Assembly: GCA_021203815.1 (NCBI GenBank)
Contig: JAJQAL010000003.1
Span: 1-44,598 of the forward strand
Source: Coprobacillus sp.
GTDB lineage: Bacteria > Bacillota_I > Bacilli_A > RFN20 > CAG-826
Length of the DNA stretch: 44,598 nt
Direction: 5' to 3'
Numbering within the stretch: the first letter of the stretch is position 1; each line of letters opens with the position of its first letter. Of this stretch, positions 754 through 32,668 are shown piece by piece. Made by a program: the position numbers and the translations under genes. The notes beneath the pieces are model-generated. The model saw only the letters and a list, made by a program, of their open reading frames with translations, did no database searches and was not told where the DNA came from.

Positions 754-1359
754 TTAATCGTAAATAGTCTCGCCGCTAAGAGCGGCTTTAATGAACCTAT
801 CTATTTCTTCATTACTCACTTTATGAGAAGCGGGGATATTATGAATATCAATCCAGCTAACCTCATCGGTTTCATATTCGTGTTCATGAAGTTCCCCTAC
901 GACTTTAGCTTCAAATATGATAGCGTATTCAGGGACTGAAGTGGCTTGTTTGAAGGGGGTTCTATTAGTGATACCCACTAAACGAACAATTTCAATCTCC
1001 GCTCCGGCTTCTTGCATACATTCCATCTTCGCGGTTTCTGCAGGGGAATTATATAAATCGCACCATCCTCCTGGAAGAGAATAGGTATGGGTATTAGCTT
1101 CTCTAACCATTAGGACTTTGTCTCTCGCTTCATTAAAGATAACACTACGCACACTTACATTAGGAGTGGGATAGACATCTCTTTCGAAGTAGTTATTGCG
1201 GTCAAATTTGACATTTTCAAAATCTTCAAGGAAGTCACGGCTCAAATCATTAATTTCGTTATAGTTAGTTAAAGCGTACTCATCTTTGGAGCAGACTAGT
1301 CCAATTTTCGCTATCGACTGGACTTTTATTAGAAAATCATAAATGTATTTACTATCCAT
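754..1359 (-). CDS. NUDIX hydrolase with an N-terminal helical domain (ADP-ribose pyrophosphatase-like)
   Basis: 201 aa. The Nudix box is visible as GGWCDLYNSPAETAKMECMQEAGAEI (GX5EX7REUXEEXGU pattern), preceded by a ~60-aa helical N-domain (IKVQSIAKIGLVCSKDEYALTNY) typical of the Nudix_N_2 class. Confidence 0.85.
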   Translation of the reverse strand: MDSKYIYDFLIKVQSIAKIGLVCSKDEYALTNYNEINDLSRDFLEDFENVKFDRNNYFERDVYPTPNVSVRSVIFNEARDKVLMVREANTHTYSLPGGWCDLYNSPAETAKMECMQEAGAEIEIVRLVGITNRTPFKQATSVPEYAIIFEAKVVGELHEHEYETDEVSWIDIHNIPASHKVSNEEIDRFIKAALSGETIYD

Positions 1360-2860: not shown

Positions 2861-3577
2861 ATGAGCACACCACACATAAATGCTAAGGATGGCGACTTTG
2901 CTAAAGTCGTCCTCATGCCGGGAGATCCACTCCGAGCTAAATGGATTGCGGAGACCTATCTAAAAGAAGCTAAATTAGTTAGTGATGTTAGGGGCATTTA
3001 TGCCTATACAGGATTAACTAAAAATGGGAAAAGAATCTCGGTTATGGCTTCTGGAATGGGTCAACCTTCAATAGGTATCTACTGCCATGAACTTTTCTGT
3101 GAATATGGAGTGGAAACCATAATCAGAATTGGAACATGCGGAACCTATCAAGAAGATATTCATTTATTTGATATTATTTTAGCCACAAGTGCTTCGACTG
3201 ATAGTAACTGGATTTATCAGTATGATGTTCCTCAGTATAGTGCGGGTTCCGACTTTGAACTCACTAAAGTCGCTAGTGAAGTTATTACTGGAAGAGGTGA
3301 GACTCTCCACGCTGGAAATGTCCTTAGTGCGGATGTGTTCTATGATCCAGATACGGAATACTGGAAAAAATGGAAAAGACTTGGCGTTTTAGCGGTGGAA
3401 ATGGAAAGTTATGCTTTATATGTTGAAGCCGCGGTGCAGCATAAAAGAGCGCTTACGATGCTAACTGTCACTGATAACTTTAACGATAGAAGTAAGAAGG
3501 CCACTTCAGAAGAGAGACAAACTGGTCTATCCAAAATGGTTGAAGCGGCAATCGAGACCGCTGAGAATTTTGCTTAA
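2861..3577 (+). CDS. deoD: purine nucleoside phosphorylase, DeoD type
   Basis: MSTPHINAKDGDFAKVVLMPGDPLRAKWIAETYL...GMGQPSIGIY...VEMES is a classic DeoD. I moved the start from the track's 2804 to the ATG at 2861, which follows GGAGGA and matches the usual N-terminus. Confidence 0.9.
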   Translation: MSTPHINAKDGDFAKVVLMPGDPLRAKWIAETYLKEAKLVSDVRGIYAYTGLTKNGKRISVMASGMGQPSIGIYCHELFCEYGVETIIRIGTCGTYQEDIHLFDIILATSASTDSNWIYQYDVPQYSAGSDFELTKVASEVITGRGETLHAGNVLSADVFYDPDTEYWKKWKRLGVLAVEMESYALYVEAAVQHKRALTMLTVTDNFNDRSKKATSEERQTGLSKMVEAAIETAENFA

Positions 3578-3630
3578 TATAGATTATTACATGCATTAAA
3601 TATATATAAAAATTAAGGGGGTCATTTTTA

Positions 3631-4050
3631 ATGAATATATTGTTCTATTTAACTCCTAAAAAAGATGTCGCTTATGTCGTGGAAACCTATTCAATAAGAC
3701 AAACTTTAGAGAAAATGGAATTCCATAGATATCAATCAATCCCTTTACTTAGCGATGACGGAAAATACGTTTCCGCAATAAGCGAGGGGGATTTACTATG
3801 GTATTTAAAAGCTCGTGATTTAAATTTAAAAGAAGTGGAACAGCTTCCAATAACTGATGTAACCCCGCAGCGAATTATTAAACCGCTTAAAATTGATGCT
3901 ACGGCAGAAGAGTTATATGAATTAATTATCACTCAAAACTATGTTCCGGTTGTGGATGACCGCGACATGTTTATTGGAATTGTCACAAGAAGAACAGTTA
4001 TCGATAAGATGGGAAGCGATATCGACATAAAAAAACTATTCGGAGAATAG
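3631..4050 (+). CDS. stand-alone CBS-pair protein (DarB/CbpB/YkuL-like)
   Basis: 139 aa with two CBS repeats (IPLLSDDGKYVSAISEGDLL; VPVVDDRDMFIGIVTRRTVIDKM). Size and the FxGIxTRRxV C-terminal motif recall the YkuL/DarB class. AAGGGGG Shine-Dalgarno upstream. Confidence 0.75.
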   Translation: MNILFYLTPKKDVAYVVETYSIRQTLEKMEFHRYQSIPLLSDDGKYVSAISEGDLLWYLKARDLNLKEVEQLPITDVTPQRIIKPLKIDATAEELYELIITQNYVPVVDDRDMFIGIVTRRTVIDKMGSDIDIKKLFGE

Positions 4051-4065
4051 TTTCTTATTATTTAA

Positions 4066-4142
4066 TGGCCCGCCCGGCAGGACTCGAACCCGCAACCCTC
4101 AGATTCGAAGTCTGATATTCTATCCAGTTGAATTACGGGCGG
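4066..4142 (-). tRNA. tRNA-Arg (anticodon UCG)
   Basis: Cloverleaf folded by hand: CCGCCCG/CGGGCGG acceptor, ATTC/GAAT D-stem, TCAGA/TCTGA anticodon stem, loop CTTCGAA, GCGGG-TTCGAGT-CCTGC T-arm, encoded CCA. Lies 5 nt after the GT2 stop. Confidence 0.85.
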
Positions 4143-4147
4143 ATTTT

Positions 4148-5476
4148 TTATACATCGATATCAAGCCGCTTGTTCTCAACCCACTGCTTATTTGCGGGGT
4201 TAGCGAATGTCGCATCGATTAAAACGAACAAATATAACGCCATATAAATAGGATTAGCAAACATCGTGTAGGCTTTTTGACGGTTATTCATGTTCGAGGT
4301 TTTCCTCGTTGTATGAATCATAATGAAGGTAAAAAGGAATAAGCCGAGGTATAAAATAACAAATGGAATAAAAATCATAAAGAAGGTCATTGAGTAATAT
4401 AAGGGGTCAAATAGTTCCATATCAACGGAGAGTAATGCCGCAAGGAAGACGCCAAGGGAACCAAGAGCGGCCACAATGGAAACAGCTATCCACAAAATAA
4501 GAGGAGCAAGTGACCACTTAAAATCGAGGAATCTAAATTTATTCTTGGTTGGATCTTTAATCTTTTTTGCTGCTTTTATGTCTTTTTTATACATGCTTCT
4601 GGAAACGACATACCCAATTAGCCATCTAGCGCGTCGGCGGATATCTCCTCTAAAGGTAGTAACTTCTTCACAGTATGTCGTCGCTTCGTTCGCGTAGTAG
4701 GCACTATATCCTTTAGCGACTGCGGCTGTTCCAAATTGATAGTCCTCGGCAAGGAGTTTATATTCCCAGCCGTTCATCTCTTCCGCAAGTTTAAATTTAA
4801 AGGCGAGACCAGTTCCACAGAATGTAAGGAATAAACCGTGCTCAGAGCGGTACCAGTTGCCCTCTTCATTAAGAAGAGCATGGGTTAGCCCGCTGCAGCA
4901 GCTAATCCAGTTATTCATATGTTTCTTATTTGAGAGGAGGTTAAGGTTACGACGGTTACAAATGACAACATCAGTGTCTTTAACAAGAGCGTTATTAAGC
5001 TCGACAAGCATGTCTTCTTTCATCTTGTTATCAGCGTCAATAACAAGAACTTCATCAAATTTCTCTCCCAACTCTAAAGCGTGTTTAAGTCCAGCGTCGA
5101 GGGCATCACCTTTACAGTGCTGGTCAGGAGATATGACAATATCATATTTAATCTTCCCTTCGAAGTGATCTTTAACAATTTCAATTGTCGGGTCGGTTTT
5201 ATTATCGACCACGACGATTACTCTAAAATGAGAGTGGTCATAAGTCTGGGCGAGAATCGACTTCAAAAGACGACCAATAACTTGGCTTTCCTGTCTTGCG
5301 GGCACGACAATACAGAAATCATTTATTTTATCATTATGAAGTTTTTCGTGCTTTTTTGCTGGTTCAAGCCAGTAAATCATACGGGGAATGTAGAGAATTA
5401 AACTAAGGACACTTAGACCGATATACGAATAACCAATAATTTGAAACGCTAGAACAAGCGCGTCATGATATGACAT
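4148..5476 (-). CDS. membrane-embedded family-2 glycosyltransferase (processive synthase type)
   Basis: CIVVPARQES...ILAQTY, VVVDNKTD, VIDADN (DXD) and RRRARW (QxxRW-like), with one N-terminal and several C-terminal TM helices. The start is probably the ATG at 5476, about 10 nt after AGAGGAGA. The track start at 5485 sits too close to the Shine-Dalgarno. Confidence 0.8.
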   Translation of the reverse strand: MSYHDALVLAFQIIGYSYIGLSVLSLILYIPRMIYWLEPAKKHEKLHNDKINDFCIVVPARQESQVIGRLLKSILAQTYDHSHFRVIVVVDNKTDPTIEIVKDHFEGKIKYDIVISPDQHCKGDALDAGLKHALELGEKFDEVLVIDADNKMKEDMLVELNNALVKDTDVVICNRRNLNLLSNKKHMNNWISCCSGLTHALLNEEGNWYRSEHGLFLTFCGTGLAFKFKLAEEMNGWEYKLLAEDYQFGTAAVAKGYSAYYANEATTYCEEVTTFRGDIRRRARWLIGYVVSRSMYKKDIKAAKKIKDPTKNKFRFLDFKWSLAPLILWIAVSIVAALGSLGVFLAALLSVDMELFDPLYYSMTFFMIFIPFVILYLGLFLFTFIMIHTTRKTSNMNNRQKAYTMFANPIYMALYLFVLIDATFANPANKQWVENKRLDIDV

Positions 5477-5526
5477 TAGTATCATTCTCCTCTAATGATA
5501 GCTGTGTATCATTAATTTTCTCTAAA

Positions 5527-5600
5527 TGGAGCACTCGACGGGAATCGAACCCGCGTATTCAGCTTGGGAAGCTGAAGTTCTACCATTGAACTACGAATGC
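5527..5600 (-). tRNA. tRNA-Gly (anticodon CCC)
   Basis: GCATTCG/CGAGTGC acceptor, GTTC/GAAC D-stem, TCAGC/GCTGA anticodon stem, loop TTCCCAA, GCGGG-TTCGATT-CCCGT T-arm, encoded CCA. 74 nt. Confidence 0.85.
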
Positions 5601-5603
5601 ACA

Positions 5604-5679
5604 TGGTGGACACTGAGGGACTCGAACCCACGACCTTCTGTACGTCAAACAGATGCTCTCCCATCTGAGCTAAGTGTCC
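5604..5679 (-). tRNA. tRNA-Val (anticodon GAC)
   Basis: GGACACT/AGTGTCC acceptor, GCTC/GAGC D-stem, TCTGT/ACAGA anticodon stem, loop TTGACGT, T-arm GTGGG-TTCGAGT-CCCTC (one U-U mismatch), encoded CCA. Lies 3 nt from tRNA-Gly. Confidence 0.8.
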
Positions 5680-5711
5680 AATGGGAATGCGACATAGTCG
5701 CAGTAAAGAAT

Positions 5712-5739
5712 ATTATATAACACTTATATACTTTTGCAA
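5712..5739 (-). promoter_or_regulatory. candidate promoter for the tRNA-Val/tRNA-Gly/GT2/tRNA-Arg unit (TTGCAA-16 nt-TATAAT)
   Basis: On the minus strand, TTGCAA (5739-5734) and TATAAT (5717-5712) with a 16-nt spacer. Located ~30 nt upstream of the tRNA-Val 5' end and just downstream of the tRNA-Thr terminator. Confidence 0.4.
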
Positions 5740-5769
5740 CTTTAAAAAATTAATCGAGATTATTTTTTT

Positions 5770-5796
5770 AAAAAAGAAAACCCTACTTTTGTAGGG
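5770..5796 (-). terminator. intrinsic terminator after tRNA-Thr
   Basis: CCCTAC-TTTT-GTAGGG hairpin (5781-5796), followed on the minus strand by TTTTCTTTTTT. Confidence 0.6.
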
Positions 5797-5808
5797 ATAT
5801 TAACTTAG

Positions 5809-5884
5809 TGGTGCCGACTATAGGAATCGAACCCACAACCTACTGATTACGATTCAGTTGCTCTGCCAATTGAGCTAAGTCGGC
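5809..5884 (-). tRNA. tRNA-Thr (anticodon CGU)
   Basis: GCCGACT/AGTCGGC acceptor, GCTC/GAGC D-stem, ACTGA/TCAGT anticodon stem, loop ATCGTAA, GTGGG-TTCGATT-CCTAT T-arm (two G-U pairs), encoded CCA. Confidence 0.85.
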
Positions 5885-5902
5885 ATTTGCTTTGTAGTAA
5901 AT

Positions 5903-5930
5903 ATTATAAAAGTATTTACTAAAATTTCAA
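5903..5930 (-). promoter_or_regulatory. candidate promoter for tRNA-Thr (TTGAAA-16 nt-TATAAT)
   Basis: Minus strand TTGAAA (5930-5925) and TATAAT (5908-5903). The -10 ends 18 nt before the tRNA 5' end. Sits immediately after the nadE stop. Confidence 0.45.
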
Positions 5931-5937
5931 TATCTCA

Positions 5938-8052
5938 TTAATCGAGTTCACTAAGGAGAGAGTTATAGCTCATATCGGGGGGAAGACGGAGGTCCCCACG
6001 TGGAGAAACGGATAAAGAGGTAATCTTAGGACCATCTGGAAGGGTACTTCTCTTAAACTGATTAGAGTAGAAGCGGCGGACAAAATTCCTTAAATGACCT
6101 TTAATGGTTTCTTCATCGTATTTACCCATAAAAGCGTAAACCGCAAGGTATAAAATCTTACTAAGAGAGAAATTTCTTCTTAAGTAGTAGTAAATGAAAA
6201 AGTCATTGAGCTCATATGGACCTATCTTATCTTCGGTTAGCTGATTAATCTCTCCGTTAACTGGATCAATAAGCTCTGGAGAGATTGGGGTCATCACAAT
6301 GCGGTTAGCGACATCCTCTATTTCAGGATGGATAGTCCCGTAATACCTAACTAGTTCTCTCACTAATGTTTTAGGAAGAGAGACATTGACATTATAGTTT
6401 GACATGTGATCACCGTTAAATGTGGTCCAGCCTAGACAAAGCTCTGATAAATCTCCAGTGCCCACTACTATGCCGCCAATCTCATTAGCGTAATCGAATA
6501 AAACCTGGGTTCTTTCTCTCGCCTGTGCATTTTCATAAACCACATTTTTATCATTAATATCGTGACCAAGATCGAGTAAATGCTGGGTTACAGATTTTTT
6601 GATATCGATTTCTTTAAAGGAAACATCGAGATTATTAGCGAGTTCTAATACGTTTTTATGAGTCTCATCGCTCGTTCCAAAAGCGGGCTCTGTTAGGACA
6701 TAAATATTTCTAGTGGGGATATTTAAGAGTTTAAATGCCTCAATACAGACAAAGAGGGCGAGGGTGGAATCAAGTCCTCCTGATAAACCAAGCACTATCT
6801 TATCGATTTTGGTGGCGCTGAGCCTTTTTCTTAAGCCGAGAGCCTGCATATAAATGACTTTTTCATAGACTTGATTATCGTCATAAATAAACGGGTTTTG
6901 CTTAATTTTACGTGAAAGTGAAGGGTTATTTAATTCCATTTTGAAGGGAATAATTTCCACTTCACTACTTTTTTCTAAGGTGAAGGAAGAAGCATGGATG
7001 CGCTCGTTTTCAAGTGATTCGATATCAATCTCAGAATAGATAAGCCCATCCATGAACATTCTTCCCTCATTAAGGAGATTACCATTTTCATAAATACCTT
7101 TGTACGATGAAAATATTAAGTCTTGAGTTGATTCACTTGGACCACTTGAGCAATATACATAGCCAGACATAAGTCTAGCACTGGTAGATTTAATTAAGTC
7201 TTTTCGAAATTCCTCTTTCCCGAGGATTTCGTTTGACGCTGAAAGATTAAAGATAATCTTAGCGCCGTTTATGGCCATAGCCGTTGAGGGCGGCTCTATC
7301 GCCCATAAATCTTCGCAGATTTCGACACCGAACGAGAGTTTATAATGCTCTAAATCCTCGAAGATAAATTTATTTCCGAAAATATATTCTTTCTCCCCTA
7401 TCACAATGGTGGAATTTTCTAAAGTATAGGGGTCAAACTGTCTATTTTCGTAGTATTCATTTTGATGAGGAAGATATTTTTTAGCGTATACCCCAAGAAT
7501 TTCGCTTCTATAAATAACGACTGCACAGTTATATAAATGAGAGTCTTTTCTTAGAGGAGCGCCCACCATAAAGACTATGTCTTTATTAGCGGAGTATTCT
7601 TTAAGTTCTAATAAAGCTTTTTCACATTGATTAAGAAGATCAGACTGATAGAATAAATCCCCACAGGTATACCCAGATAGACAAAGCTCAGGAAAGACTA
7701 AAAGTTTAATCTCCTTATCAAGCGCCATATCAATATATTTTTTAATTTCCGCAACATTGTGATTTACATCCCCAACAGCGATATCAAAGGAAGCGGCGCC
7801 CACTCTGATATAACCAAAGAAATTCTTATCGAGAACTTTATATTCAAATTTAGTAATTTGTTTCTTTGGTGCTAAATATAGTGGCTGCTGGATGGGTGAA
7901 GCGCTAATAAGTGAGCGGTAATACTCGTCTGACATCACGACTAAATCAGCATAACCATTTTTAGTAATAAAAAGGGGCTCATTCGATGAATGACAAGCCT
8001 CACTAATTTTATTAGTGTCACGCAAATCTTTAATAGGAATTATCTGACTCAT
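5938..8052 (-). CDS. nadE: glutamine-dependent NAD+ synthetase (CN-hydrolase + NAD synthase domains) with an extra N-terminal Phd/YefM antitoxin-like domain
   Basis: Residues ~80-370 form the CN-hydrolase/glutaminase domain (FGYIRVGAASFDIAVGD..., LLVFPELCLSGYTCGDLF, GVEICEDLW). Residues ~395-704 form the NAD synthase domain (VLGLSGGLDSTLAL P-loop, GTGDLSE). Residues 1-50, MSQIIPIKDLRDTNKISEACHSSNEPLFITKNGYADLVVMSDEYYRSLI, match the Phd/YefM pattern. There is no stop and no ATG/GTG/TTG between the two parts. Confidence 0.85.
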   Translation of the reverse strand: MSQIIPIKDLRDTNKISEACHSSNEPLFITKNGYADLVVMSDEYYRSLISASPIQQPLYLAPKKQITKFEYKVLDKNFFGYIRVGAASFDIAVGDVNHNVAEIKKYIDMALDKEIKLLVFPELCLSGYTCGDLFYQSDLLNQCEKALLELKEYSANKDIVFMVGAPLRKDSHLYNCAVVIYRSEILGVYAKKYLPHQNEYYENRQFDPYTLENSTIVIGEKEYIFGNKFIFEDLEHYKLSFGVEICEDLWAIEPPSTAMAINGAKIIFNLSASNEILGKEEFRKDLIKSTSARLMSGYVYCSSGPSESTQDLIFSSYKGIYENGNLLNEGRMFMDGLIYSEIDIESLENERIHASSFTLEKSSEVEIIPFKMELNNPSLSRKIKQNPFIYDDNQVYEKVIYMQALGLRKRLSATKIDKIVLGLSGGLDSTLALFVCIEAFKLLNIPTRNIYVLTEPAFGTSDETHKNVLELANNLDVSFKEIDIKKSVTQHLLDLGHDINDKNVVYENAQARERTQVLFDYANEIGGIVVGTGDLSELCLGWTTFNGDHMSNYNVNVSLPKTLVRELVRYYGTIHPEIEDVANRIVMTPISPELIDPVNGEINQLTEDKIGPYELNDFFIYYYLRRNFSLSKILYLAVYAFMGKYDEETIKGHLRNFVRRFYSNQFKRSTLPDGPKITSLSVSPRGDLRLPPDMSYNSLLSELD

Positions 8053-8061
8053 AATCTTCTA

Positions 8062-8096
8062 TACATAATTATGTACATAGTTATGTCAGAAATCAA
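8062..8096 (-). promoter_or_regulatory. nadE promoter (TTGATT-17 nt-CATAAT) overlapped by tandem palindromic operator-like repeats
   Basis: Minus strand -35 TTGATT (8096-8091) and -10 CATAAT (8073-8068). Perfect 14-bp palindrome TACATAATTATGTA at 8062-8075. Two directly adjacent 12-bp units, ACATAATTATGT (8063-8074) and ACATAGTTATGT (8075-8086), are 11/12 identical, and TGTACA lies at their junction (8072-8077). Confidence 0.4.
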
Positions 8097-8104
8097 TAAT
8101 AAAA

Positions 8105-8746
8105 TTATTGGTCAGGGTTTTGCGTGCTTATTTCTTTTATTGCTGGGGGATTATCACGGACAAAATTAAGGGATTCAACAATTCTCGTATATTCTCTATG
8201 AGTAAAGAGAGTGGGCATGGCGTTCTCCCATTTTATAATAATTTCCGTAAGATCTGAGGGTTTTACGACTGGAGCAGTGGGGTTTTTGACATCAAAAGAC
8301 TCGCATCCAATTACGACGACTGGATGAACATACTCTCTTTCCTTACTAATGATTTTAGAGAGCGCGGGAACATCCCCTTGAATCTCCCTAACGGGATTAT
8401 AAACTTTATAGGTTTTCGTGTTTTTATCCTTTGTGGTCTGCTTCCAGTAAGGGTCGTCATTATTACCTTCAATCACACCACTGAAATCTTTAACGAGGAT
8501 AGCGTATACACCTTTAGTGGTGACTACTATGTAGTCAAACTTCACTGGATTATCTTTCGCAGGGATAAGGATATTCTTATATATCGTTTTTGTTTCAATC
8601 GGAAGCCGGTTGATATAGTCATCTACTTTCTTAGAAAGATTTTTGACTTTATGACGAGGAAAAACACTGATACACAAAAAAATCACCGCCACGAGAACAA
8701 TGACTCCGCCTATCACAGATAAGGTAATTGTAAGAGCAGTTGACAT
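8105..8746 (-). CDS. membrane-anchored NERD-domain protein
   Basis: 213 aa. N-terminal TM helix, then KFDYIVVTTKGVYAILVKDFSGVIEGNNDDPYWKQT...YKVYNPVREIQGDVPAL, which parallels the NERD consensus (IDHivv..GifvIE.Kn.sG.i.G....W.q....yNP..Q). AAGGAAAG Shine-Dalgarno upstream. Confidence 0.7.
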   Translation of the reverse strand: MSTALTITLSVIGGVIVLVAVIFLCISVFPRHKVKNLSKKVDDYINRLPIETKTIYKNILIPAKDNPVKFDYIVVTTKGVYAILVKDFSGVIEGNNDDPYWKQTTKDKNTKTYKVYNPVREIQGDVPALSKIISKEREYVHPVVVIGCESFDVKNPTAPVVKPSDLTEIIIKWENAMPTLFTHREYTRIVESLNFVRDNPPAIKEISTQNPDQ

Positions 8747-8762
8747 ATTTTAGTCTTTCCTT

Positions 8763-8849
8763 TGGTGCCTGAGGCCGGACTCGAACCGGCACGTTCCAAT
8801 GAACATATGATTTTGAGTCATACGCGTCTACCAATTTCGCCACACAGGC
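8763..8849 (-). tRNA. tRNA-Leu (anticodon CAA), class II with long variable arm
   Basis: GCCTGTG/CTCAGGC acceptor (one mismatch), GGCGAAATTGGTAGACGC D-arm, loop CTCAAAA, long variable arm, GCCGG-TTCGAGT-CCGGC T-arm, encoded CCA. 87 nt. Confidence 0.85.
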
Positions 8850-8852
8850 ATA

Positions 8853-9320
8853 TTAATCATCGTCATTAGGGTCATCACCATCAAGCATATCCCACATACT
8901 GAGACGGAACATCTCATCATCTGGGGTGTCCCTATTAGATCCCCAAAACTCTTCTTCAGGGTCTAATGATTCGCTTTTACTTCTTTCTTTATGAAGCTTG
9001 GCTAGATATATTTCCTCTTTCTCTTTCTTTTCTCTCGCTTTTTCTTCATTTCGGGCGTCCCAGTCAACTGAGGCAAGGGCAAGGGCTATCGCAAATAGAC
9101 CCACAAAAACAAAGATAAACATCCATACAGTTTGAGTGGTAGCATAGGCCTCGTCCCCATAGGCAAAATCATTTACAAACCAAGAAAGAATCCCGTTAAA
9201 GATTAAAAAGAAGAAACAAACTCCACAGATAATAGCAAAAACAATCGCCGTAATCTTGCAGTTATGCCTTGTTTTTGCATTAGCATCTTCACTTAGATTT
9301 TTTCTATCACGTCCACTCAT
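8853..9320 (-). CDS. hypothetical two-TM membrane protein with a charged/acidic C-terminal tail
   Basis: 155-aa ORF with two hydrophobic helices, a KEKKEKEE stretch and a ...DGDDPNDDD C-terminus. I recognise no family. No Shine-Dalgarno in the 11 nt separating it from the upstream tRNA. Confidence 0.5.
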   Translation of the reverse strand: MSGRDRKNLSEDANAKTRHNCKITAIVFAIICGVCFFFLIFNGILSWFVNDFAYGDEAYATTQTVWMFIFVFVGLFAIALALASVDWDARNEEKAREKKEKEEIYLAKLHKERSKSESLDPEEEFWGSNRDTPDDEMFRLSMWDMLDGDDPNDDD

Positions 9321-9331
9321 AAGTTAAGTCA

Positions 9332-9420
9332 TGGTGTGGTCAAGAAGATTCGAACTTCTAAGGGGGACGTCCCCCACTAGCTTCTGAGACTAGCGCGTTT
9401 ACCAATTTCGCCATGGCCAC
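9332..9420 (-). tRNA. tRNA-Leu (anticodon CAG), class II
   Basis: GTGGCCA/TGACCAC acceptor (one mismatch), GGCGAAATTGGTAAACGC D-arm, CTAGT/GCTAG anticodon stem, loop CTCAGAA, GGGGGA-CG-TCCCCC variable arm, AGAAG-TTCGAAT-CTTCT T-arm, encoded CCA. Confidence 0.8.
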
Positions 9421-9434
9421 ATATTAGTATTATA

Positions 9435-11093
9435 TTACTCTTTTATTCCTCTTTTTTCATTCTCTTCCTGTTGCAGGACCTTAAAATCGACCTTCCCAAT
9501 CATCGTATGAGGAAGTGATTTCCTTATCTCTATTTCAACAGGAACTGAATATCTTATTAGATTTTTCCGACAGCTATTCATAATAGTCTCTACTAGACTA
9601 TTCTCATCACCTGTGGAGGCCGTGACAAAGGCTTTAAGAGCGTGCCCGGTTTTACTAAAGGGGACCGAAACACAGCTCGCTTCTTTAACGCCTGGAATAG
9701 TTTCAATATATTTTTCCACTTCACTAGGGAAGACCGCTACTCCATTGACCTTCACCACTCTCTTTTTTCTTTGCTTAAAGAAAACAAAGCCGTCTTCATT
9801 CATGTAACATAAATCTCCAGTATAGAGCCATCCGTCTTCATCTATGGCTTCCTTAGTGGCGTCTAAATCATTATAGTAACCAATCATCGTGGCTTTACAT
9901 CTCTGAGCGAGCTCTCCAACTTCCCCGATAGGAACTTCGTTATGGTTTTCATCCACAATCCTCACTTCGATATCAGGGCCCGCATGTCCGATAGAGCCGG
10001 GGCAGTTACATTCATGAGTATTAAGAATAGTCGCAGTGACCGCTTCGGTAAGTCCATATCCTTCAAAGAGCCTTCCATCATGACTTCCGTTTTTATGAAG
10101 GATCTCTTCAAACTGCTCAGTAAGTTTAGGAGGGAGAGAGTCCCCACCGCACCAAGCGACATGACAGTATTTAAGATTTTTACATTTAGAGAAGGGTTTA
10201 TAGTCCACGAGTCTTTGGTACATATTAGGAACACCGGCGATGGCAAGAAGCGGAAAATGATGAAGAGCCTGAGTCACCGCTTTCGGAGTGAACTTAGGAA
10301 TCTGAACTGAAGCAAAGCCGATACATAGAGGCGCGTGTATGGTCCAAAGTAGACCAAACCCATGGAAAGAAGGAAGGACAGAAAGCATTCCTTCATTTTT
10401 ATGCTCCCATAGATTACTAACGCATAAATGATGAGGAGCCTGATCTGCAAGGAAATTGAAATTCGTGTTGCTTAAACAGATTATCTTAGGATCTCCGGTG
10501 GTGGATCCACTGAGGAGAATAATGGCCATTTCATCCGCCCAGTTAGACTCAGTTGAAACGTCTTTCGAAACTGGTTTTAAGTGTTTTAAATACGTAAAAC
10601 CTTTAAAATCCCCATGTTTTTTTAGTTTTCGACGGGTTTTATTATTTAAGAATAAGTGATAACCAACTTTCTTAAAGAAAGGAAGATAATCTTCCACTCT
10701 TGAAACAAAGATCTTATCGCTCATTTTCTCATAGGGTTCAACATCATCCGCGATTCTCTGCTCAAAGAGAAAAGCGTATTTTGCATTAACCTTATTCATG
10801 ACCTCTTCCATCTGGGAATAGGGAGAAAGAGGATGCATGAGGCAGGATACCGCTCCTATCTTATTAAGAGCGTATAAAAGAATAATCGAGGTCGGAATAT
10901 TTGGCTGGGCCACTAAAACAACATCGCCTTTATTGATACCGAGATTATTTTTTAAAATTGCGGCGTAATAATTAATATATTCCTCGAGTTTAGTAAAAGA
11001 GATTTTCCTTCCTTCATAGTAAATCGCAGCTGCCTTAGGATTACGGCTCGCTCCAATAAGGAACGCTTCATATAGTGATAAACCTTCAAACAT
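9435..11093 (-). CDS. AMP-dependent acyl-CoA synthetase/ligase (long-chain fatty-acid--CoA ligase-like)
   Basis: 552 aa. AMP-binding motifs LLSGSTTGDPK (SGTTGxPK), EGYGLTE, YTGDL and the C-terminal GKVDFKVL lysine motif. Confidence 0.85.
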   Translation of the reverse strand: MFEGLSLYEAFLIGASRNPKAAAIYYEGRKISFTKLEEYINYYAAILKNNLGINKGDVVLVAQPNIPTSIILLYALNKIGAVSCLMHPLSPYSQMEEVMNKVNAKYAFLFEQRIADDVEPYEKMSDKIFVSRVEDYLPFFKKVGYHLFLNNKTRRKLKKHGDFKGFTYLKHLKPVSKDVSTESNWADEMAIILLSGSTTGDPKIICLSNTNFNFLADQAPHHLCVSNLWEHKNEGMLSVLPSFHGFGLLWTIHAPLCIGFASVQIPKFTPKAVTQALHHFPLLAIAGVPNMYQRLVDYKPFSKCKNLKYCHVAWCGGDSLPPKLTEQFEEILHKNGSHDGRLFEGYGLTEAVTATILNTHECNCPGSIGHAGPDIEVRIVDENHNEVPIGEVGELAQRCKATMIGYYNDLDATKEAIDEDGWLYTGDLCYMNEDGFVFFKQRKKRVVKVNGVAVFPSEVEKYIETIPGVKEASCVSVPFSKTGHALKAFVTASTGDENSLVETIMNSCRKNLIRYSVPVEIEIRKSLPHTMIGKVDFKVLQQEENEKRGIKE

Positions 11094-11104
11094 AGGTTAG
11101 CTCC

Positions 11105-11860
11105 TTAGATAAAGTAGAAAATAGGAGTTAAAATTATCTGATGTAAGATATAGATGATAAGGGTATGACGACCGATAAAGCAGATAGGTCTCTCCCAGTT
11201 ATATTTATGTTTAAGAAGTGAGGTTCTATTTTGGTAATAGAAGCGGGAGAAGATCGCGCCCGCAAAAAACCAGATGATATAAGGACAGAGCGACATATAG
11301 TCACCATAGCTTTTATTAGCCCATAGAATCGGGAAATACGCTCTTCCAAAATTATCTTCGAGAACTGGAAGGGCAATATTTGTAAATAAAACGCATATCA
11401 ATAGGACAGCAAGAAGGACTCTCCACGTCTTTTTCTCCACAAAGGCGTAAATCAGGGTGCATACCGCCAGGACACCAATCACATTAAATTCGATGGAAAT
11501 ATTACCAAAAACTCCCCATTCTGTCCCAATATTAGTGACAAACATGATTAAAATCATGACAGCAATAAGTTCACATGACCTCTTATAGTTATTTTTTGAG
11601 AAGGCAGTGGAGATCCCACTTAAAAAACAAAATAGAAATAAGACAAACTCTCTAAATACTTCTCTTGCGGTCCAGTGCCAGTACCAGGCGGCAAAGTCCA
11701 TGCTTTGATAAGCATATAGGTCATACATGATATGATCAAAAACAACGAGGACAATACATATCCCTCTTAGGAAATCAATTTCGTGGACTCTCCTATCAAA
11801 GGCTCTTACCTTTGGCTTTCGATCTACGGGTTCTTCAAGTACAGCAGCGGTATCACTCAT
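11105..11860 (-). CDS. DUF1624 / heparan-alpha-glucosaminide N-acetyltransferase-like membrane acyltransferase
   Basis: 251 aa, polytopic. N-terminal RVHEIDFLRGICIVLVVFDHIM is the characteristic R..xiD.lRG...l.mv..H motif. Confidence 0.65.
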   Translation of the reverse strand: MSDTAAVLEEPVDRKPKVRAFDRRVHEIDFLRGICIVLVVFDHIMYDLYAYQSMDFAAWYWHWTAREVFREFVLFLFCFLSGISTAFSKNNYKRSCELIAVMILIMFVTNIGTEWGVFGNISIEFNVIGVLAVCTLIYAFVEKKTWRVLLAVLLICVLFTNIALPVLEDNFGRAYFPILWANKSYGDYMSLCPYIIWFFAGAIFSRFYYQNRTSLLKHKYNWERPICFIGRHTLIIYILHQIILTPIFYFI

Positions 11861-11965
11861 ATCAGTTTTTTATTATATCAAAAAATGAAATCATATAAAT
11901 AATATTTATATTGCGTATTAAATGTGGGTTGAATAATCTTAAAAGAATGTTATAATAATTCCACT

Positions 11966-12691
11966 ATGGGATACGAAACATTAGACGGAATTATCGTTGA
12001 TTATTTTAATGGCCTTGGCTGGTGGGGTAATTTAATCCTCGTCCTTATTTCTCTTGTTCTCGCTACTGTCTTAGGCGGAATAATTGGAATGCAGAGAGAA
12101 TTAAATGGACACGCCGCAGGATTTAGAACACATGTTCTAATCTCTCTCGCCACGGCTTTAATCATGATTATCTCCATTTATGGACTCAGTTCCTCTAATG
12201 CTTCAGGAACAAGAGATCCAATGAGACTCGCCGCTGCTGGTGTTGCAGGCGCTGGATTTATCGGTGCGGGCTGTATCATTAAAAATGGTTCCACAGTCAA
12301 AGGTTTAACAACAAGCGCGACTATATGGCTAGTGACTGCAATTGGTCTATGCTGCGGAGCGGGATGGTTTGTTATCGCGATTCTAGTGACGATTATCGCT
12401 ATGATTGTCCTCGTCGTCTTTGCTAAAGTTGACATCTGGGCGAATAAGAAAAATTCTCATATTGTGGTCCTATCAGATTTAGAGTCTCCAATTCTCTCCC
12501 AGCTTCTCGAGTATCTCGAGAAATATCATATTCAATATCGTGATCTATCTTCTAGTTTTGCCGAGCATGAAGGTCAGAAATGTCTTAGAACTCACGTGAC
12601 CTGCTCCGGAAAAAGTAAAGCGGAGATAGAAGATTTTATCACTACCTTCAAAGAGGAAGTGAATCCAATCGATATCGTCTTATTAAAATAA
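11966..12691 (+). CDS. mgtC: MgtC/SapB family membrane protein
   Basis: 241 aa. LGGIIGMQRELNGHAAGFRTHVLISLATAL plus 4-5 TM helices and a soluble C-terminal domain. Confidence 0.85.
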   Translation: MGYETLDGIIVDYFNGLGWWGNLILVLISLVLATVLGGIIGMQRELNGHAAGFRTHVLISLATALIMIISIYGLSSSNASGTRDPMRLAAAGVAGAGFIGAGCIIKNGSTVKGLTTSATIWLVTAIGLCCGAGWFVIAILVTIIAMIVLVVFAKVDIWANKKNSHIVVLSDLESPILSQLLEYLEKYHIQYRDLSSSFAEHEGQKCLRTHVTCSGKSKAEIEDFITTFKEEVNPIDIVLLK

Positions 12692-12717
12692 CACTAATCT
12701 AGTCAGTTTATGAATAT

Positions 12718-12750
12718 AAAAAGGACACCATAGGTGCCCTTTTATTTTTC
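12718..12750. terminator. bidirectional intrinsic terminator shared by mgtC (+) and polC/tRNA-Pro (-)
   Basis: AAAAAGGACACC-ATA-GGTGCCCTTTTATTTTT. The stem has one mismatch and a U-run follows on both strands. Confidence 0.6.
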
Positions 12751-12754
12751 AAAA

Positions 12755-12831
12755 TGGTCGGAACGATGAGATTTGAACTCACGACCTCTTGGTCCCGAAC
12801 CAAGCGCACTACCAAGCTGTGCTACGTTCCG
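12755..12831 (-). tRNA. tRNA-Pro (anticodon CGG)
   Basis: CGGAACG/CGTTCCG acceptor, GCAC/GTGC D-stem, CTTGG/CCAAG anticodon stem, loop TTCGGGA, GTGAG-TTCAAAT-CTCAT T-arm, encoded CCA. Lies 8 nt after the polC stop. Confidence 0.85.
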
Positions 12832-32601: not shown

Positions 32602-32668
32602 AATCCTAAATTATTATACTAATAATTATATAAATGTAAATTAGAGAAAAAGTGTAAAGTAAAAAAAC

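Follow-up and report, generated by a model that had tools for sequence, protein, structure and literature searches.

NAD+ synthetase fused to a Phd/YefM-type antitoxin domain behind a two-palindrome site: a candidate self-repressing enzyme in Coprobacillus and related Bacilli

A 44,598-nucleotide stretch of DNA from Coprobacillus sp. (contig JAJQAL010000003.1, assembly GCA_021203815.1; the whole stretch is called the window below) encodes, in one open reading frame (ORF), a glutamine-dependent nicotinamide adenine dinucleotide (NAD+) synthetase, NadE, headed by a domain of the Phd/YefM antitoxin family. The promoter of this fused nadE gene is covered by two adjacent palindromic units of the kind that stand ahead of phd-parE toxin-antitoxin genes in Clostridia, and the same pairing of domain and site recurs in every fused nadE locus that was read from DNA. 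We put the probability that the enzyme represses its own transcription, through its N-terminal domain and the two-unit operator at 8064-8085, at roughly 75%.

Pfam analysis of the 704-residue product placed CN_hydrolase at residues 91-271 and NAD_synthase at residues 405-621. The NCBIfam equivalog model for NAD+ synthase, PRK02628, matched residues 78-703 with 729.5 bits, against a curated cutoff of 473. Since this match begins only at residue 78, the enzyme is complete without the first ~77 residues, which have been added to it, in agreement with an earlier reading made from the sequence only, which had described a NadE with ~75 extra N-terminal residues. The whole of residues 78-704 can be aligned with NadE from Mycobacterium tuberculosis (PDB 3dla, E=1e-122), which belongs to the octameric class (PMC6946656). 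The two enzymes share the glutaminase triad and the SGGxDS motif as well as full-length homology, but the M. tuberculosis enzyme, unlike the fusion, carries no N-terminal DNA-binding domain. Neither the triad (E122, K191 and C246) nor residues 424-429, the SGGLDS motif, vary in 74 orthologues of the fused protein, which makes it almost certain, as judged from conservation, that the fused NadE is active. In a full-length AlphaFold2 (AF2) model, with a mean predicted local distance difference test score (pLDDT) of 85.7, the N-terminal domain (N-domain) is folded separately from a confidently folded enzyme body, for which pLDDT is mostly 85-99.

The isolated N-terminal 75 residues matched the Pfam family PhdYeFM_antitox (PF02604) over residues 3-50, with E=1e-4 and 22.5 bits. 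The match ends at profile position 50 of 74, and the C-terminal region with which antitoxins wrap and neutralise their toxins is not present. AF2, supplied with 38 orthologous N-termini, modelled residues 1-50 as a beta-alpha-alpha-beta-beta-alpha fold with pLDDT of 87-94. A Foldseek search of the PDB with this model returned Phd/YefM-type antitoxins for nearly all of the top ~46 matches, with probability ~1, a target-normalised template modelling score (TM-score) of up to 0.84 and a root-mean-square deviation of 1.3-2 Å over ~50 residues; operator-bound Phd (4zm0, 4zm2) and DNA-bound YefM-YoeB (6l8e) were among the top matches. A PDB search with the sequence profile of the N-domain matched Phd/YefM-family antitoxins only. 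On the strength of the predicted fold, the N-terminal ~50 residues constitute the part of a Phd/YefM-type antitoxin that dimerises and binds DNA, and by this kinship they would bind DNA here too. The same identity had been proposed from the letters alone; the fold and the PDB profile support it, whereas the Pfam score of the protein itself falls short, a point that is taken up below.

Every fused protein, in at least 120 clusters, opens with the pattern (I/K)xPIxxLRxT...PIFITKNGYxDLVxxSxxxY. P6, I7, L10, R11, N32 and G33 do not vary across the 74 orthologues, and conservation of K31 is at least 90%. Mutation of R10 or R31 in YefM abolishes operator binding (PMC4803016). K31 of the fusion corresponds to YefM R31 in the register of the hidden Markov model if, as presumed, a tag shifts the numbering of chain 2a6q_A by 3 residues, and R11 falls one residue off YefM R10 in a hand alignment. 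The basic residues with which YefM binds DNA are thus conserved in the N-domain of the fusion.

Between the two parts of the protein lies a linker. Neither a stop nor an ATG, GTG or TTG occurs in codons 51-83, as the earlier reading had noted; the first such codon is the GTG of Val84, which lies within the NadE core, and neither a ribosome-binding site nor a start codon precedes that core. Residues 51-78 are of low confidence and without secondary structure in the full-length AF2 model, with pLDDT below 50 at residues 55-61. Distant orthologues share 56% identity with the window protein in the N-domain, 51% in the enzyme body and 8% in the linker, whose length varies between 14 and 42 residues while the reading frame always stays open. 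That the N-domain is as conserved as the enzyme while the linker drifts indicates that the fusion is maintained by selection.

A search of ~5.8 billion proteins yielded at least 120 clusters of ~700 residues, 47-100% identical to the window protein and with the identical in-frame fusion architecture; query coverage was 98-100%, except for one N-terminally truncated entry. The orthologous fusions that the earlier reading proposed to look for in related genomes therefore exist, down to 47% identity. Members with a taxon name come from Coprobacillus, Erysipelotrichaceae, Erysipelotrichia and metagenome-assembled genomes (MAGs) labelled 'Bacilli bacterium', and their public annotation is plain 'NAD(+) synthase'. 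The fusion was re-read from DNA in 21 loci, the window included. Pairwise identities of N-domain and enzyme are weakly correlated (Pearson 0.39, Spearman 0.19); a 48-residue domain cannot resolve single from multiple fusion origins, and we make no claim on this point.

On the coding strand, the 52-nt gap upstream of nadE reads TTGATT-tctgACATAACTATGTA-CATAAT-TATGTAtagaagatt-ATG. Operator unit 2 opens with the −10 hexamer, CATAAT, and the spacer between −35 and −10 is occupied by unit 1. Both the promoter and the arrangement of two adjacent 12-bp units, with a 14-bp palindrome and TGTACA at the junction, had been described in the sequence-only reading, and both were found exactly as described (Table 1). 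The pattern ACATANNTATGT occurs twice in the 44.6-kb window, in both cases at these units, against 0.04 occurrences expected, and no shuffled sequence reached two. When sites were scored on a 20-point match to the two-unit consensus, the site at nadE was the only one in the window to score 16 or more, the next best being a site of score 15 at 32609-32630; a regulon within the window was accordingly rejected. An RNA element in the intergenic region was likewise rejected, with a fold z of −0.81, no Rfam match and no predicted terminator-like hairpin. The leader of the window gene is ~9 nt long (tAGAAGATT) and has a weak ribosome-binding site at best.

Table 1 Coordinates of the fused nadE gene, its parts, its promoter region and the adjacent upstream gene in the window
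Feature	Position	Strand	Remarks
Fused nadE ORF	5938-8052	(-)	704 aa
N-terminal Phd/YefM-fold domain, putative dimeric DNA-binding module	7909-8052	(-)	residues 1-48
Flexible, unconserved linker	7819-7908	(-)	residues 49-78, ~28 residues
Glutamine-dependent NAD+ synthetase body (nitrilase-type glutaminase + synthetase)	5938-7818	(-)	residues 79-704 + stop codon
12-bp unit ACATAATTATGT	8063-8074	(-)	extends to perfect 14-bp palindrome TACATAATTATGTA
Two-unit operator CATAACTATG-TA-CATAATTATG (candidate)	8064-8085	(-)	two 10-bp palindromic units, centres 12 bp apart; 19/20 against double consensus
Sigma-70-type promoter TTGATT-17-CATAAT	8068-8096	(-)	consensus scan 9/12
12-bp unit ACATAGTTATGT	8075-8086	(-)	TGTACA at junction with 8063-8074 unit
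NERD-domain protein gene, N-terminal membrane anchor	8105-8746	(-)	ends 52 nt upstream of nadE, same strand

The comparison was extended to 21 fused nadE promoters, comprising the window, 3 loci from a genome scan, 5 from a metagenome scan and 12 from exact protein look-up. Two CATAATTATG-like units lie directly upstream of nadE in all 21, with a spacing of 11 bp in 16 loci and of 12 bp in the 5 loci of the window's Coprobacillus-like clade, and the second unit ends 2-25 nt ahead of the ATG. The scores are 14-19 out of 20, with 18 of the 21 loci at 16 or above, a value reached by ~1% of random segments. As controls we used non-fused nadE promoters from the metagenome scan, the matches of which were mostly non-fused NadE. 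The two-unit operator was not found in 63 distinct promoters of this kind, where the maximum score was 13 in a larger searched region. The co-conserved repeats whose search in relatives had been proposed thus accompany the fusion (21/21) and are absent from non-fused genes (0/63).

In 16 of 16 loci there is no variation at the operator positions C1, G10 and G21, none of which belongs to the −10 hexamer, and the intergenic DNA that flanks the operator is otherwise dissimilar between fused loci when compared by eye. The −10 hexamer, TATAAT or CATAAT, is the start of unit 2 in both spacing classes. In the close relatives L001, L002 and L161, which have 12-bp spacing, TTGnnn or TTTACA was read by eye 16-17 nt upstream of CATAAT. 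TGTACA, the core of the yefM-yoeB palindromes of E. coli, was considered as the conserved core here as well and was rejected, since a central TGTACA is lacking in most fused loci (those with 11-bp spacing). What is conserved as the recognition unit is CATAATTATG; TGTACA appears only at the junction in the 12-bp-spaced Coprobacillus clade and on the outer flanks of many stand-alone operators, and its presence in the window is thus a by-product of the 12-bp junction in that clade.

A separate observation concerns the position of the operator relative to the gene. In 9 of the 21 fused loci (L001, L082, L084, L103 and L164-L168) the operator ends 2-6 nt before the ATG and the −10 hexamer is 6-10 nt from the start codon, which leaves no space for a Shine-Dalgarno sequence and corresponds to the geometry of leaderless mRNAs.

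An N-domain profile built from 10 sequences was scanned against one genome per species and gave at least 579 candidate stretches, the best 80 of which were counted by locus. These 80 comprised 3 NadE fusions, ~65 stand-alone proteins of ~87 residues and 12 proteins with a DUF2007-like tail. The stand-alone hosts are mostly Clostridia and include Lachnospiraceae, Oscillospiraceae, Anaerovoracaceae, Acetobacterium, Halanaerobium and others. The ~87-residue proteins share 60-76% identity with the query domain alignment, fused and stand-alone domains are 35-75% identical to each other, and the stand-alone proteins pass the threshold of Pfam PhdYeFM with 33-41 bits. A ParE_toxin gene follows the stand-alone gene, usually with an 8-nt overlap, and a ParE-like gene adjoins 56 of the 77 loci without NadE (65 stand-alone and 12 DUF2007-type). 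At several stand-alone loci the toxin ORF is truncated or no toxin is present in the flank. As the earlier reading had claimed, the fusion itself has no toxin partner: a tblastn search with the ParE toxins of related modules found no ParE toxin in the whole window or in the 20 other fused loci.

The antitoxin genes of Clostridia sit behind an operator of the form CATAATTATG-n-TATAATnATG, which covers the −10 box and for which the consensus of the stand-alone genes can also be written tg.aCATAATTATGnTATAATnATG. Nearly every stand-alone or DUF2007-type gene has tg.aCATAATTATGnTATAATnATGt.caaa 18-28 nt ahead of its ATG, with the −10 box TATAAT in the second unit, and equivalent two-unit sites were found upstream of at least 70 stand-alone homologues. 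The consensus of the fused nadE operators, CATAATTATGnTATAATTATG, is the consensus of these toxin-antitoxin operators. In Clostridia this Phd-ParE family is very widespread, and its promoter-operator is itself strikingly uniform, tgtACATAATTATGyTATAATwATGTACA.

At the protein level, 748 clusters at 50% identity reached E<=1e-10 in a search of 1.84 billion representative proteins. No other enzyme fusion of the N-domain was found among the best 150 of these representatives, all long proteins there being NadE or fragments of NadE. The DUF2007-type proteins, of 130-138 residues and from Oscillospiraceae, combine a Phd-type N-domain with a DUF2007-like tail of ~80 residues behind a CATAATTATG-n-TATAAT operator (L004, L008, L009, L013, L022, L023, L025, L032, L033, L036, L051 and L076; gene start at ~3001 in most). 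In L008 the gene lies within a histidine operon, with hisD at 1657-2931 and hisB, hisH and hisA beyond it at 3449-5351. In the Phd-DUF2007 proteins the antitoxin head may have been co-opted a second time, independently, to control a metabolic gene.

The sites of the fused genes resemble well-studied operators. YefM and Phd each repress the promoter of their own gene by way of paired palindromes that are spaced ~12 bp and overlap the −10 box, and in the yefM-yoeB operator of E. coli the adjacent L and S palindromes have TGTACA cores and centres 12 bp apart, L being the one that covers the −10 (PMC1802561, PMC4803016); their adjacency and TGTACA cores are as the sequence-only reading had given them. 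The fusion is like the Phd/YefM antitoxins (YefM-YoeB, phage P1 Phd-Doc, M. tuberculosis RelJ) in its N-terminal fold and in having two palindromes 11-12 bp apart over its own −10, and it shares with the Clostridia Phd-ParE modules the sequence family as well as the fold. It differs from these antitoxins in that it lacks a toxin-neutralising tail, because the 626-residue enzyme stands in its place, in that it has no toxin gene, and in that the gene to be regulated is a housekeeping biosynthetic one. Its recognition unit, CATAATTATG, also differs from the TGTACA core of E. coli yefM-yoeB.

From the observed architecture, fold, conservation and co-occurrence of domain and operator, we infer DNA binding by the N-domain, repression, and a role for oligomerisation, as follows. 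A Phd-ParE cassette of the Clostridia type would have been the source of the domain, the promoter and the operator, acquired together, and the toxin-binding tail of the antitoxin would have been exchanged for a flexible linker and the 626-residue enzyme. Dimers of the N-domain would occupy the two adjacent CATAATTATG palindromes, one helical turn apart. Because the palindromes cover the spacer and the −10 of the nadE promoter, their occupation would block RNA polymerase and place the level of NadE under negative autoregulation. Repression in the parental modules is strengthened by the toxin, which bridges antitoxin dimers; in the fusion the oligomeric enzyme body probably gathers several N-domains and might in this way supply the avidity that the toxin co-repressor provides in those modules.

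Several points weigh against this proposal. The 22.5 bits of the window protein lie below the PF02604 gathering score of 29.8. The assignment of the operator is drawn entirely from comparative genomics, and some bases of the motif also serve as the −10 box; since this box is embedded in the motif and the DNA is AT-rich, some of the conservation could reflect promoter function. A promoter match of 9/12 is ordinary, with 10 such sites observed in comparison with 10.8 expected. Phd/YefM antitoxins without their toxin co-repressor often bind operators weakly, and no toxin is present here. Finally, no terminator is predicted between the NERD gene and nadE, so that read-through into nadE is possible and might bypass occlusion of the promoter.

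The most serious alternative, which we nevertheless regard as unlikely, is that the N-domain is an evolutionary passenger: insertion of a cassette and a deletion would have fused an antitoxin head to nadE, the domain would not bind DNA and would perhaps serve as an oligomerisation or solubility module, and the motif would have been kept merely as the promoter that drives nadE. The embedding of the −10 box in operator unit 2 and the clear descent of the domain from Phd-ParE modules agree with such a history. It is at odds with the conservation of the N-domain, which in orthologues of ~50% identity is kept like the catalytic body while the linker drifts, and with the invariance or near-invariance of the residues that match the DNA-contact arginines of YefM. 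A promoter, moreover, needs no palindrome in its spacer, yet conservation extends to C1, G10, G21 and the whole of unit 1, and the motif is never found at the 63 non-fused nadE promoters.

Less probable again is a link in trans, by which the fused domain would act on the operators of stand-alone phd-parE modules or form heterodimers with their antitoxins, and nadE would not be its main target. The operator consensus common to fused and stand-alone domains and their identity of 35-75% make such cross-recognition physically plausible. However, the site is always at nadE itself, with no second site of score 16 or above in the window, no ParE-like gene was detected in the window or the 20 other fused loci, and the stand-alone modules are mostly from Clostridia whereas the named fusions are from Erysipelotrichia and other Bacilli. 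That a sequencing error has hidden a stop between separate antitoxin and nadE genes was considered because such fusions are a priori rare and one contig-end orthologue fragment is annotated 'Phd/YefM family antitoxin, partial', but an artefact of assembly or annotation is ruled out for practical purposes by at least 120 independent in-frame clusters from many assemblies, by 21 loci read from DNA whose frame stays open despite variation of the linker, and by the lack of a start codon or ribosome-binding site before the NadE core.

Autorepression by NadE through its N-domain, the reading that we favour, would place the protein beside the known enzyme-repressors. BirA is both biotin ligase and bio repressor, NadR both nicotinamide mononucleotide (NMN) adenylyltransferase and repressor of the NAD regulon, and PutA both proline dehydrogenase and put repressor. 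Like these proteins, the fusion joins a metabolic enzyme to an N-terminal DNA-binding domain, putative in this case, for its own or its pathway's promoter, and the architecture of a trigger enzyme, with enzyme and DNA-binding-type domain in one polypeptide and an operator at its own promoter, is apparent from its sequence. The DNA-binding fold is of the Phd/YefM type in the fusion, in contrast to a winged helix or helix-turn-helix in BirA and NadR and a ribbon-helix-helix in PutA. Control of DNA binding by an effector defines BirA, NadR and PutA, whereas the evidence for the fusion indicates autoregulation only and no regulon was found. By analogy, occupancy of the enzyme by nicotinic acid adenine dinucleotide (NaAD), ATP, glutamine or NAD+ might alter the pairing of N-domains and the affinity for the operator; such a metabolite-responsive trigger enzyme is a tentative extension, to which we assign well under even odds.

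Enzyme-repressors and Phd/YefM operators are known already, and what appears to be undescribed in the searchable literature is the capture of an antitoxin domain with its promoter and operator on an essential NAD enzyme, kept throughout a bacterial lineage. A literature search for NadE fused to a Phd/YefM domain, or for NadE as a trigger enzyme, the coverage of which left out most subscription journals, found nothing relevant, and the terms 'N-terminal extension', 'additional domain' and 'DNA-binding' do not occur in a survey of the NadE family (PMC3376133).

Seven tRNA genes lie on the nadE strand, (-), within 4066-12831 (Arg-TCG, Gly-CCC, Val-GAC, Thr-CGT, Leu-CAA, Leu-CAG and Pro-CGG). They stand singly or in pairs between protein genes, and three are directly downstream of nadE (5527-5884). 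NUDIX hydrolase genes, often fused to Y_phosphatase3, occur next to fused nadE in several distant loci (L164, 1373-2452; L165, 455-1540; L167, 444-1529; L168, 1-648; L172, 4614-5153). The NUDIX gene is immediately downstream of nadE in L172 and ~5 kb away in the window (754-1359, (-)), and the association is possibly linked to the turnover of NAD or ADP-ribose. In L170, from a 'Bacilli bacterium' MAG, a gene for AbiEii, an abortive-infection toxin, lies divergently beside fused nadE at 906-1772 together with a small upstream ORF; this proximity is probably coincidental.

Known bacterial regulators of NAD synthesis are NadR, NiaR, NrtR and NadQ, and to our knowledge no dedicated regulator of nadE has been described in these gut Bacilli. 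A self-repressing NadE, if true, would fill this gap in NAD regulation and enlarge the small group of enzyme-repressors. What is predicted is sharply delimited: the site measures 22 bp, there are two candidate contact residues, and the promoters of non-fused nadE genes offer a natural negative control. Domain and operator together could also be put to use in low-GC Gram-positive bacteria, as a repressor-operator pair that is compact and portable. The locus would also be a case of domestication, in which the head of an antitoxin was captured together with its promoter and operator and its toxin-binding tail was exchanged for an essential enzyme. The domain and operator of a toxin-antitoxin system would then have been taken over as a unit for core metabolism, with the enzyme body in the role of co-repressor. 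Were metabolite control to hold as well, the last enzyme of NAD synthesis would sense the flux through its pathway and set its own transcription accordingly, a new circuit of NAD homeostasis in gut Bacilli of the Erysipelotrichia type.

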